DNA of 64,000 nt from Longimicrobiales bacterium (lineage in GTDB: Bacteria; Gemmatimonadota; Gemmatimonadetes; Longimicrobiales; Gaopeijiaceae), in NCBI GenBank assembly GCA_965219445.1, contig CBDCNQ010000004.1, forward strand, positions 96,001 to 160,000, given 5' to 3'. Below, piece after piece: positions 14,404 to 18,985 of the stretch (the first letter of the stretch is position 1; every line of letters begins with the position of its first letter). The notes below the pieces were generated by a model that had not been told where the DNA came from, did no database searches, and saw only the letters and a program-made list of their open reading frames with translations. The translations under genes and the position numbers were made by a program.

Positions 14404-15010
14404 GGGTTGCGTCCTTTCGTTTCAATGCCCGCGAGCGCTTGCAGTGCCCTCGAGGTGGTGGAGGTGATGACGATGCATCGACGTAGCTGAATTGCCAAGA
14501 GCGAGCAGGTGGAGCTTCCTTACCCACCATGGCGTGCCTCACGATTTTCGTGATATCGACCCTTGACAGCGAAGCAAAGGCTCGCTTTCCCGTCTTCTTG
14601 CGTGCCGGGGTACCCCCGGTGAGCTTGCCCAATCCCTCAACTGACCATCGAAGGGACACTCGAATGATTCCGGTTTTCCTTCTTAGCAAGGAGATCACAC
14701 CATGACGAGCAAAGCCAGAATTCTGGTGACTGGAGCGACCGGGAATACCGGAGGTGCGGTCGCGCGTCAGCTCCTTCATGAGGGCCACCCCGTGAACGCC
14801 CTCGTGCGGAGGCAGGATCATAGGGCGGACGCGCTCGCCAAGGGAGCTAGGATCAAAGGCATCATAGGGGCATGGCGACCGCTACCGGTACCGATCAGCA
14901 GCGAAGCAGCCCGAAGACGAAGAGGCGTTCTCCTCCGGGAACGGGTGCGCGTTCATCATTATTCGCGCAAGCAAGCAACCCAACCCGTCCTATCCAAGAG
15001 GAGAACGCCC

Positions 15011-16066
15011 ATGGAGAGATATATCGGACTCGACGCACACGCGTCGAGCTGCACGCTGGGGATTGTAGGCCCCAGCGGCAAGCGCTTGGGCTCGCAGGTG
15101 GTGGAGACGAACGCGCGGGCGCTGATCGAGGTGCTGCGAGGGATTCCGAGGAACCGGCACTTATGCCTGGAAGAAGGGACGCTGTCGGGGTGGCTGTACG
15201 AGGTGCTGGAGCCGCACGTGGAGGAGCTGACGGTGGCGGGGGTCGGCAAGAGCCGGGGCCCGAAGACCGACAAGCTGGACGCGTTTGCCCTGGCGGAGAA
15301 GCTGCGGATCGGATCACTGGAGACGAGGGTCTACAAGAACCGGGGCCAGTTCAGGCGGCTGGGGGAACGGGCGAAGAGCTACGACTTCCTGGTCGGCGAC
15401 ACGGTGCGGGTGAAGAACCGGCTCAAGAGCGTGCTGCGCTCGAGAGGAGTGGCCTACGGCGCGGGGCGCTCGGTCTACTTAAAGCGCGACCGGGAGGAGT
15501 GGTTGGCCAAGCTGCCGGAAGCGAGCAGGACGACGGCCGGGTTGCTGTACGAGGAGCACGACGCACTCGTGGCATTGAGGGCGAAGGCCGAGAAGGCGTT
15601 GCTGGCGGAAGCACGCAAGCATCGAGAGTGGCATGTGCTGAAGACGTGCCCGGGTCTGGGTCCGATCCGGACGGCGGAGCTCCTGCCGGTGGTGGTGACG
15701 CCGTACCGGTTCCAGAGCCGGAGCAGGTTCTGGGCGTACTGCGGACTGGGCGTCGTGATGCGGAGCTCGTCGGACTGGGTGCGGGGTCCGGGTGGGCGGT
15801 GGGTAAGGGAACCGGTACAGCAGACGCGGGGGCTGAATCGGAACTTCAACCACACGCTGAAGCGTGTGTTCAAGGGCGCGGCGACGACGGTGATCGGTCG
15901 GGCCGAAAACGAACCCTTGTACCGCCACTACGAGCGACTCCTGGAGGGGGGCACGAAGCCGAATCTGGCGAAGCTGACGATCGCGCGTCAGCTCGCCTCG
16001 ATCGTGCTAGCGGTGTGGCGCACGGGCGAAGCGTACGACCCCAAGAGACTGGAAGCGACGGAGTAA
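15011..16066 (+). CDS. IS110-family DEDD recombinase/transposase
   Basis: YIGLDAH, CLEEG and KTDKLDA (DEDD), CPGLGPI helix-hairpin, YCGLGVVMRSS serine region; AGGAGA RBS. Confidence 0.95.
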   Translation: MERYIGLDAHASSCTLGIVGPSGKRLGSQVVETNARALIEVLRGIPRNRHLCLEEGTLSGWLYEVLEPHVEELTVAGVGKSRGPKTDKLDAFALAEKLRIGSLETRVYKNRGQFRRLGERAKSYDFLVGDTVRVKNRLKSVLRSRGVAYGAGRSVYLKRDREEWLAKLPEASRTTAGLLYEEHDALVALRAKAEKALLAEARKHREWHVLKTCPGLGPIRTAELLPVVVTPYRFQSRSRFWAYCGLGVVMRSSSDWVRGPGGRWVREPVQQTRGLNRNFNHTLKRVFKGAATTVIGRAENEPLYRHYERLLEGGTKPNLAKLTIARQLASIVLAVWRTGEAYDPKRLEATE

Positions 16067-16432
16067 ACCGGCCTGGGATCGGCGAGCGTGGGGTCGAAAG
16101 CGGTCACAACATGGGGTCCGACGAAACGGAAGCGAACCGGTTACAGGGGACAGCATCCATACACACCGTGGGCCGGGGCAGAGAGCCCAAGCCCCCACTC
16201 AAAGGCTATGCACCCCTGGAGAGCCGAACGAAGCGATGGGCCACAGAGTCCCAGATAGAAGGATGGTTCCCGCTCCAGAGCGGAGAACGCGACGGCTGTG
16301 AACGTCTTCCGGACTGCGATGCGGACCCTGCGAGCGCACCCCTCCCCACCCTGAGTCGTCGACCGGGCAATCCAAACCATGCGGACGCCGACGGTCAAAA
16401 AATGAGCCGACGGCGCGTGGGGAAGGTGCGTC
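16067..16432 (+). ncRNA. Putative bridge/seekRNA in the IS110 right non-coding end (boundaries approximate)
   Basis: TACACACC (16160-16167) and TCAAAGG (16199-16205) match the two target strands and lie in a stem-bounded internal loop. ATAGAAGG (16255-16262) matches the element's own junction. Confidence 0.75.
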
Positions 16433-16455
16433 TTGACCGCCAGCCCCATAGAAGG
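16433..16455 (+). promoter_or_regulatory. -35 half of the IS110 circle-junction promoter
   Basis: TTGACC at 16433-16438 sits 17 bp before CATCAT (14860-14865) when the ends are joined through one AAGG core. Confidence 0.7.
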
Positions 16456-16551
16456 GTGTGTAAAAAAAGAGGCGACGTACCTTTCCGCTAGGTAGTAAGA
16501 AGTTAACCAGCGAATCCCGGGTGAGCGCCCGGGGGAAAGGAACGATGCCTC

Positions 16552-17797
16552 GTGAGGAAGAATATGGTGGGACCCGAGAGTGAGTCCAGCACGCCGACGT
16601 GGGAGTGCTTGGAAGCGCTGGTTCGTGAGAAGGCCCAGGAGATGGTCCAGCGGATTCTGGAGGAGGAAGTGACGGAGTTGCTCGGCCGGGAGAAGTCGGA
16701 GCGGAAGACGGTCGTAGACCCGGCGCCAGGCTACCGCAACGGCTACGGCAAGGCTCGGCGGCTGGCGATGAGCTCGGGCACGATCATGCTCCGACGGCCC
16801 CGGGTTCGAGGCATTGAGGAGCGGTTCGAGAGTCGGGTGTTGCCGTTGTTCGCACGACGGACGAAGGAGGTGGGTGCTCTGCTTCCGGAGCTGTATCTGC
16901 ACGGGCTGGCGGAGGGAGACTTCGAGCTGGCGATGCGGGGCCTGCTGGGCGAGGGGGCCCCGTTGTCGAAGTCTTCGATTCGGAGACTGCGGGCGGGATG
17001 GACGGCGGAGTTCGAGGAATGGAGCCAGCGTCGCCTGGAGGGCCGTGAGGTCGTCTACGTATGGGCGGACGGGATCTACGTGAAGGCAGGGCTCGAGCGG
17101 GACAAGGCAGCGCTGCTGGTGGTTCTCGGTGCGATGCGAGACGGGACGAAGGAGGTGTTGGCCCTGAGATCGGGCTACCGAGAGTCGGTCGAGTCCTGCT
17201 CCGAGGTGTTGCGGGATCTGAAGGCACGCGGCATCGAGGCGCCCCGGCTTCTGATGGCGGACGGCAACGCGGCGATCTGGGGCGCAGTACGGGCAGGTAT
17301 GGCCTGAGGCGGGCGAGCAACGGTGCTGGAACCACAAGATGAGGAACGTGCTGGACCGGCTGCCGCAGCGGGAGCAGAGCGAGGCGAAGGATCTTCTCAG
17401 GACCGTGGTCTACGCACCGAGGCGGTCCGAGGCGCTGAAGGCCCGTGAGGCGTTCGCCAGGCGCTACAGACCGTGGTATCCGAAGGCGGTGGATGTACTC
17501 GAGGACGACTGGGAGCGGATGGTGGCGTTCTACGACTTCCCCGAGGATCACTGGAAGCATCTACGCACGACGAACGTGGTCGAGAGCCCGTTCGCTGCGC
17601 TACGGCTCAGGACGACGGCGGCGAAGCGATTCAAGCGGGTCGAGAGCGCTACGGCGCTGATCTGGAAGTTGCTCTTGGTGGCCGAGAAGCGGTTCCGAAG
17701 GCTCGACGCTCCTCACCTCCTCAAGGACGTGTTTGAAGGAAGGAAGTTCGAAGACGGAAAGCCCGTCTCAACCCAACAGCGGAAGAATGCCGCCTGA
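16552..17797 (+). pseudogene. IS256-family transposase with a +1 frameshift
   Basis: GYRNGYGK, YVWADGIY, LMADGN, QRCWNHKMRN, LRTTNVVES. Removing one G from GGG at 17291-17293 restores AVRQVWPEAGEQRCWNHK. Confidence 0.9.
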
Positions 17798-18985
17798 TAC
17801 GTTTACACACCTATTGACCCAACCTCCGCCAAGGCGGGGGCCAAGGTAATCGTGGGGGACCTCCTCGAGCCCGAGGACCTCCGGCACGCCATGACAGACG
17901 CGCAGAGGGCCTACTACATGGCGCCATGGGCTCCAAACCAACTTCACGGGGCGATGAACTTCGCCGTGGCCGCGGCGGATTCCCGCTTGGAAGTGGTGGT
18001 CGCCATCACGCAGTGGCTGGCGCAACCGCAGCACCCGTCCGTCGCCACGCGGCAGAGCTATCTGACCGATCGAGTCCTCGACTGGATGCCGGGCGTCGAT
18101 TCGATCAGGGTGAATCCCGGATGGTTTGCGGACAACTACATGGCGGTGCTGGGCACCGTCGCGCAGCTCGGGATCTTCCCTTACGCGCTCGGCGAAGGAA
18201 AGGCCGCGCCGGTATCAAACGAGGACATCGCCCGCGTCGCGGTAGGGGCGTTGGTGAACCCCGGGCCCCACGTCGGCAAATACTACCGACCCAGCGGTCC
18301 CGAGCTCCTCGATCCCCATCAGCTCGCGGCGATCTTCGGCAAGGTGCTTGGGCGCTCCGTCACCTACCGGGACATGTCCCCTCGGATGTTCAACAAAGCA
18401 CTAAAGGTCGTGGGCATGAGCCCCGTGCTCATCAGTCAGCTCCAGCACTACCTGGAAGAGTATCGTCGCGGAGGCTTCGCTGCGGGGGCGCCCAACGATG
18501 TGGTTCAGCGCGTCGGCGGTTCCGCCCCCGAGGACTTCGAGACGATCACACGCCGGTACGTGGCGGCGAACCCCATGACCCGTCGTAGCTTGGCGAACAA
18601 GCTCCGCGCCATCGCGGAGTTCGCGAAGATCGTTCTGGCCCGGACACCGGACGTCTCTGCATACGAACAGAGGCAGAATCATCCCTTGCTAAGAGACCCG
18701 AAGTACGGCTTGGACTACGCGCCTTGGCGTAGATCACATGCCGTCCCGAACGCGTACGGGCTCGAGGGGGTTTTCAACCAGGGACACCTCCACCCGTCCG
18801 ACCAACGTACGTCCGGGATCCAGGACTCCATGGAGGCTGCTCAATGAAGATGGCTATGCATGCCCCTCCATCGATTGGAGGGCCGGGGGCGGACCGCGGC
18901 TGATCACCTTGCCCGGACAACGTCGACAGGTTCTGATGCTGAGAACCCTGGCCTTGGGCTTCATCCGAACAGCGAGGACGTAGCC

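Follow-up and report, generated by a model that had tools for sequence, protein, structure and literature searches.

A candidate bridge RNA of an IS110-family element in Longimicrobiales, with guides matching the left inverted repeat of IS256-type elements and the element's own ends

The stretch of 64,000 nucleotides of Longimicrobiales DNA analysed here (the window) holds, downstream of an IS110-family recombinase gene, a non-coding region (16067-16432) that an earlier note had read as a bridge RNA or seekRNA with guides for the end of an IS256 element and for the junction of the IS110 element itself. The locus raises the question of whether this region encodes such an RNA and, if so, which DNA that RNA would address. 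Comparison with related loci assigns 16144-16269 to a predicted bridge RNA; the IS110-family element that encodes it (14859-16452) is intact and sits inside the left inverted repeat of an IS256-type element (Table 1). The explanation that joins these parts is, in our judgement, highly probable: the RNA is encoded by its own IS110 element, its target loop would address the IS256 left inverted repeat and its donor loop the element's own joined ends. The sequence strings reported by the earlier note were all found in place, namely TACACACC at 16160-16167, TCAAAGG at 16199-16205 and ATAGAAGG at both 16255-16262 and 16448-16455.

Table 1. Features of the IS110-in-IS256 locus (window coordinates; all on the plus strand)
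Feature	Position	Strand	Details and evidence
NmrA-like host gene, 5' piece, broken by IS256	14702..14843	+	Pfam NmrA, 36 bits
IS256 8-bp target duplication CGCCAAGG	14836-14843, second copy 17827-17834	+	sequence match
IS256 left inverted repeat, outer part	14844..14858	+	short target arm ATCAA 14852-14856, core AG 14857-14858; uninterrupted empty form known
IS110 left end	14859..15010	+	left donor arm GCATCAT 14859-14865; conserved end motif
-10-like CATCAT, within IS110 left end	14860-14865	+	counts over end pairs
Imperfect sub-terminal repeat arm, IS110 left end	14863-14871	+	repeat covariation
IS110 DEDD recombinase, 351 aa, intact	15011..16066	+	D8, E54, D87, D90, S253; PF01548, PF02371, invariant residues, IS621 alignment
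Target-binding module	16144..16218	+	outer stem, internal loop, inner hairpin 16170-16194; helices 1-3
Long target guide (LTG in IS621 terms), TACACACC + core-facing GT	16160..16169	+	pairs with GGTGTGTA 16455-16462
Short target guide (RTG) CTCAA	16198..16206	+	core-binding AG 16203-16204, handshake GC 16205-16206
Donor-binding module	16221..16269	+	closing stem, internal loop, inner hairpin 16238-16251; helices 4-5; RNAalifold
Left donor guide CGAAGC, probable, weak	16229..16234	+	4/6 to TGATGC (minus strand of 14859-14864)
Right donor guide ATAGA	16255..16263	+	core-binding AG 16260-16261, handshake GA 16262-16263
IS110 right end	16433..16454	+	conserved end motif; -35-like TTGACC 16433-16438
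Right-end parts		+	repeat arm 16443-16451, donor arm ATAGA 16448-16452, core AG 16453-16454
IS256 remainder	16455..17826	+	PF00872 in two pieces; long target arm 16455-16462
IS256 right inverted repeat, untargeted	17802-17826	+	

Both Pfam domains of the recombinase scored above their cut-offs (PF01548, 39.3 bits against 29; PF02371, 32.5 against 21.3), and the NCBIfam IS110 model NF033542 matched with an E-value of 1.8e-32 but at 112.8 bits, below its cut-off of 140. The five putative active-site residues were invariant in 23/23 aligned relatives, with S253 aligned to the serine motif of IS621, and a family profile searched against solved structures retrieved IS621 (PDB 8wt6) and ISCro4 (PDB 9t56) with E-values of 3.4e-12 and 6.8e-10, respectively. 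The nearest relatives belong to Longimicrobiales and Gemmatimonadota and further ones to Myxococcota, Acidobacteria and others; in the plasmid collection, the best relative reached only 27.6% identity and no close named element was present. Two other genomes carry groups of such genes, with 15 clustered IS110-like copies at 40% identity in one (G005:C1) and 11 matches at about 25% identity in the other (G006, C1-C2); some of these clustered genes are 2-4 kb apart, and they perhaps sit in cassette arrays. A one-base frameshift near 17291 splits the IS256 transposase gene of the locus (16552-17797), which shows 46 differences from the modal IS256 copy; the open frame of that modal copy spans 423 codons.

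Uninterrupted target sites define the crossover. The empty repeat GAGCTAGGATCAAAGGGTGTGTAAA was found in 44/88 pattern matches in genome G063, 5/12 in G065 and 1/15 in G061, and its 25 bases equal the left flank, AG and the right flank, with no duplication beyond the core; the core is therefore AG on the plus strand and CT on the minus strand. These two bases are shared between element and target at both junctions (14857-14858 and 16453-16454), with G16455 counted as target and G14859 as element, and the minus-strand target site reads ACACACC-CT-TTGAT. The core T is almost invariant among relatives, and the other core base covaries with the RNA. Cores of AAGG or GG were rejected, as nothing beyond AG or AA is common to the relatives and the base past the core varies; the reading of TCAAAGG as target arm plus core has to be narrowed, only AG being core in the empty sites. 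In a subgroup of relatives (L043, L050, L054, L059, L065, L098, L102, L109, L112, L113 and L115), the left junction shows AA and the right one AG, and the target loop carries AA, matching the left junction, which fits a top-strand exchange between unlike donor and target cores.

Related loci for comparison comprised 77 kept of 96 confirmed genome stretches, the best 80 of 464 from metagenomes and 30 more. A profile of the RNA core matched downstream of the gene in 127 of the 136 loci holding the C-terminus plus 250 bases, and nowhere upstream of the gene in the loci analysed (in both cases with metagenome loci limited to the best 80 of 464). For the fold, 80 sequences were picked at <88% identity, and the exclusion of ten with long inserts or divergent loops left 70. 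In these, 90.6% of cells were paired, compared with 79.8 in shuffled and 32-53% in slid alignments, two-sided (compensatory) changes occurred in 20/28 pairs, and RNAalifold independently predicted the same helices. Helices 1-3 were paired in 80-100% of cells, with two-sided changes in 15/18 pairs, and helices 4-5 in 91-93%. The result is a predicted architecture in which two internal loops follow one another, each bearing an inner hairpin, and which is kept in relatives of about 40-100% protein identity; the remainder of the region (16270-16432) is highly variable in length among relatives and lies outside this conserved core. The closing stem proposed by the earlier note (16145-16156 with 16208-16217) recurs in both the minimum free energy and the comparative fold. 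Its separating hairpin, GTGGG 16168-16172 with CCCAC 16194-16198, needs trimming: the strings are there, but covariation starts the hairpin at 16170, pairing 16186-16194, and makes 16168-16169 and 16198 loop (guide) bases. Folding energy over the whole region was unremarkable (z -1.05 and -0.22), and an Rfam scan of the 64-kb window at gathering thresholds returned no match.

Guide assignments were compared with the flanks of each locus. Element ends were located by end motifs that included neither core, handshake nor flank, and loci below the score thresholds were left unused. Nine loci were dropped as own-genome copies or duplicates, L131 as misaligned, and rows with guide gaps were removed; right junctions were taken without L002, L005 and L077, which have junction duplications, and each distinct guide set was kept as one row. 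The short target guide matched its five flank bases at 181/215 positions in 43 guide sets, against 99.5 ± 6.0 in shuffles and 36-56 when slid. The long target guide matched six flank bases in the register of the window at 279/510 positions in 85 guide sets (142 shuffled), and in registers -1 and +1 at 181 and 191 (127 and 137 shuffled); with the best of the three registers the total was 385/510, against 210 ± 9. Neither 181/215 nor 385/510 was reached in any of 10000 shuffles. At least 5/6 bases were matched by the long guide in one of four registers in 51/85 sets (3.1 expected), and the other 34/85 stayed below 5/6 in all; in the present element the long guide mismatches the first core base. 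Shuffles ignore kinship, and hence disjoint nearest pairs with differing guides were also compared. In this test, a short guide fitted its own target better than the swapped one in 14/17 pairs (1 against, 2 ties), and a long guide in 37/41 (1 against, 3 ties). The proposal that the region encodes a bridge RNA or seekRNA of the IS110-family recombinase is thereby borne out on two counts, covariation within the fold and covariation of guides with flanking targets. Both target guides named by the earlier note are real, although left and right have to be exchanged, for on the minus strand TACACACC is the left guide and TCAA plus AG the right guide with the core.

On the donor side, the right guide equalled the donor end in 72/72 rows at each of five positions, four of which are variable. 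The match of ATAGAAGG to the donor end recorded in the earlier note is thus correct, and its exact role would be right donor guide plus core plus handshake base; the guide that is unclear is the left one, not the right one as the note had it. This fourth guide is probably at 16229-16234. In two relatives (L047 and L052) RNA and donor change jointly to a 6/6 match, and in a third (L034) they do not. A different candidate, GATGC at 16319-16323, was discarded because it falls outside the conserved module. Of the handshake bases, the GC beside the short target guide matches the first two donor bases, with 16205 agreeing in 43/43 sets (invariant) and 16206 in 39/43 against 34.6 expected; 16262 equals the first target base in 49/72 rows against 36.4, and 16263 agrees weakly (25/72 against 19.1). 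Read from the sequence, insertion would proceed from two handshake pairs before exchange to three after it.

Natural changes of guide were also found. The recombinase of L009 is 95% identical, both of its guides are changed, its left flank is an IS256 right-type repeat and its right flank fits the new long guide at 5/6; this single copy hints at natural retargeting. Such natural guide changes suggest that the RNA and recombinase may form a complete and reprogrammable pair. Ten relatives from several phyla (L010, L014, L017, L018, L026, L028, L029, L037, L063 and L080) have a near-identical guide pair and similar flanks, which suggests that they hit one common target. An attC site as this target was rejected, the start motif occurring in 5/83 flanks and the partner motif in none of those five.

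The genome of the window itself (G000) allowed target use to be followed over many copies. It holds 24 left junctions (23 with the exact motif and one variant), of which 23 lie within IS256-type left repeats and none in a right repeat. The remaining insertion (G000:C2:336722) lies outside IS256, at a site that the short guide fits at 5/5 and for which the fit of the long guide is in register -1; the same RNA would be used in register 0 at IS256 ends and in register -1 at its one other site. Examined for a base gained on insertion, a clean join of the flanks there gives an open frame of 188+160 codons, against 66 with one base dropped, and a sub-threshold SIR2_2 match is present on one side only; a search of 11 other genomes from the genus and of 5 further genomes did not recover the empty form. 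Among 25 right-end matches in G000, 21 are followed by the long target arm, and the other four comprise the non-IS256 site, an intron-cut copy, a tandem duplication and one spurious match. None of 30 matches to the IS256 right repeat is interrupted, in line with the suggestion that this repeat escapes, but the core is not the reason, as the right repeat keeps AG. Instead, an extra T beside the core shifts the short target arm, which then matches 16198-16202 at only 1/5, and for this reason the right repeat would be missed.

Several rearrangements were seen at or near these sites. A third element at this spot is a 1.9-kb insert on the minus strand of G000:C4:1169770-1171666, which lies three bases into the same IS256 target arm, directly behind an IS110 copy. 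It holds a reverse transcriptase frame of 481 aa with a YADD motif, and its ends are group II intron-like. Tandem repeats of the recombinase 3' end plus the whole RNA region, in which the right core is joined to an internal AG of the element's own gene, occur at G000:C5:1612735-1613245 and L005:3900-4470, with three copies in G062, and reflect either self-insertion or assembly error. Fragments of related IS110 elements with the same donor module and a different target module are found at G000:C2:661546-661605 and G000:C5:1023334-1023423 and in three other samples, and a loose contig end matches at window position 16213. For many IS256 copies on C2-C5 of G000, the 8-bp duplications pair crosswise, one copy with another, which points to copy-to-copy rearrangement or assembly mis-joins.

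Three other accounts of the data have to be weighed. Were the guide matches chance, or remnants of duplicated junction sequence, the ordinary folding energy and the silence of Rfam would be expected. Yet the three matches arose singly 8, 124 and 13 times and never jointly when 16067-16432 was dinucleotide-shuffled 5000 times, the guides vary along with unrelated flanks in 43 and 85 distinct guide sets, and guide covariation together with the nearest-pair test refutes this account, whose probability we regard as negligible. It is also conceivable, if improbable, that only the target loop works, as a short seekRNA; the donor loop would then be dispensable or act only through its right guide, and protein would recognise the donor ends at the sub-terminal repeats. 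Support comes from the weakness of the left donor guide, the covariation of the sub-terminal repeat (187/324 against 149 ± 4.6) and the sufficiency of short seekRNAs in other elements (PMC11187229). The donor module is nevertheless conserved as much as the target module, and the right guide equals the donor end at five positions and varies with it, an agreement that shared ancestry could partly explain.

The remaining account grants the RNA and questions its specificity, which would be overstated if the IS110-IS256 pairs descended from one insertion and the composite was then moved by the IS256 transposase. Each composite does have its own flanks, an exact 8-bp IS256 duplication surrounds 5/23 and a further 5 have one matched crosswise with another copy, and the outer 15 bases of the left repeat remain. 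However, 16 full composites carry 16 different IS110 haplotypes, 11 of them over identical IS256 bodies, and these do not track IS256 divergence (Mantel r -0.10, p 0.95). The IS110 insertion point is moreover identical to the base among IS256 variants that share 78-100% identity, and in G061, G063 and G064, and the single copy found away from IS256 occupies a site that the guides fit as well. We consider descent from one insertion very unlikely. Because the haplotypes all differ and show no correlation with IS256 divergence, separate IS110 insertions into a pre-existing IS256 burst are favoured; the haplotypes look mosaic, and gene conversion or assembly mixing could blur this test of independence.

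Free IS256 left ends give a further view of target use. Where several IS110 copies are present, only 1/19 free ends is intact (G000 0/5, G061 1/3, G062 0/1 and G064 0/10), compared with 44/45 in G063 and 5/6 in G065, which have one full IS110 copy each. All five free ends in G000 differ at the target; the exact 13-base target is absent from that genome, and nine sites with one mismatch are free. In G064, an IS256 variant without the target has multiplied eightfold. The 44 intact free targets beside one full copy in G063 count against automatic filling; a dead recombinase might lie behind them, but the catalytic residues of that copy are intact. Survivorship accounts for most of the free-end pattern. 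In G000, three free IS256 copies (C4:199261, C4 near 1221670 and C5:267937) match the occupied ones over 1.37 kb except for a lesion ≤5 bases from the core, which differs from copy to copy and for which scars or assembly error are needed. A speculative reading, which we think unlikely though deserving of mention, is that the long guide slides by one base to either side and that failed or imprecise IS110 removal leaves immunising lesions in IS256 ends, so that an arms race would be visible here; the lesions may also reflect assembly polishing errors or plain survivorship.

Among characterized elements, IS621 (PMC11208160, PMC11208158; PDB 8wt6) and ISCro4 (PDB 9t56) share with the present one a recombinase of DEDD and serine type, two successive internal loops in which a hairpin separates two guides, an NT core, handshake bases and a junction promoter (a candidate here). 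The minus-strand site corresponds to the 7+2+5 target layout given for IS621 in PMC11208158. In contrast to both elements, the RNA here is encoded downstream of the recombinase and its target is read from the minus strand; the searchable supplements gave no match to the scaffold sequence. Unlike in IS621, the long guide slides by one base among relatives and the target is an IS256 end rather than REP; for IS621, PMC13626964 gives one handshake pair before exchange and three after. The element is predicted to work like IS621, and the testable features of the IS110 family are present except for the weak left donor guide. With the IS1111-type seekRNA elements ISEc11, ISKpn4, ISPa11 and ISPst6 (PMC11187229), it shares a long downstream non-coding region, the 351-aa protein, the absence of target duplication and the guide order, with the top-strand complement first (16160-16167 before 16199-16205). 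Its left end of 152 bases and right end of 386 agree with the downstream region of the strict IS1111 group, but the near-perfect sub-terminal repeats of ~11-13 bp are absent (6/9 here, imperfect in 36 end pairs), the C-terminus reads GLGVVMRSSS rather than GL-P----S(t)G, and the donor guides lie in a simple rather than a multi-loop. Because the repeat and the C-terminal motif differ, we leave the element outside the strict IS1111 group; PMC11187229 also mentions IS110-type elements whose long region is downstream and whose repeats are short and imperfect.

Homing of IS110-family elements on other mobile elements has precedents in IS1383 (into IS1384 repeats) and IS4321/IS5075 (into Tn21 repeats), and ISEc21 targets IS3-family transposase genes; here, the host element is instead IS256 and only its left repeat is used. 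No report of an IS110 bridge RNA aimed at IS256 ends was found in the open-access literature searched. The clade is already in a published IS110 tree, without an ISfinder name: row 047f01cb2f2db4a2e4 in Supplementary Table 1 of PMC11208160 prints close domain sequences (near L013 by eye), and no RNA or target is described for it in the searched part of the PMC11208160 and PMC11187229 supplements.

Taken as a proposed mechanism, the element would form a circle, whose junction would create a promoter (TTGACC, 17 bases, CATCAT) driving the recombinase and the downstream RNA. One loop of the RNA would pair with both strands of the 14-base site in the IS256 left inverted repeat and the second with the element's own joined ends, and strands would be exchanged at the CT core of the minus strand, the gain of a third handshake pair upon insertion being modelled on IS621. 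For another IS110, a preprint (10.1101/2025.10.25.684509) reports copy-out with top-strand transfer, and the route of movement may differ here from that sketched above. TTGACA or TTGACC occurs in 21/36 and CATCAT in 27/36 distinct end pairs, and a scan of the linear sequence for promoters gave no site, as expected if the promoter exists only on the circle. One RNA run covers only 15094-15379, at a depth of 2.4. Contigs of four runs show, in other samples, the element together with IS256 left ends in occupied as well as empty form, and they list no circle joint or empty-site joint, contigs being a form of data that drops rare forms. IS256 would have spread first, its left ends then being filled one after another by IS110, which would thereby use a multi-copy, non-essential landing site and probably cripple its host IS256.

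Overall, the locus clearly adds a new member, with an activity predicted from sequence, to a known kind of programmable recombinase, and it leaves the known mechanism unchanged. The analysis maps a compact two-loop bridge RNA scaffold of about 126 bases onto an IS110 clade that has no close named member in the databases searched. Dozens of naturally differing guide sets make this clade a candidate for orthologue screens of programmable recombinases, and its many genomic copies provide a natural record of tolerated target changes.
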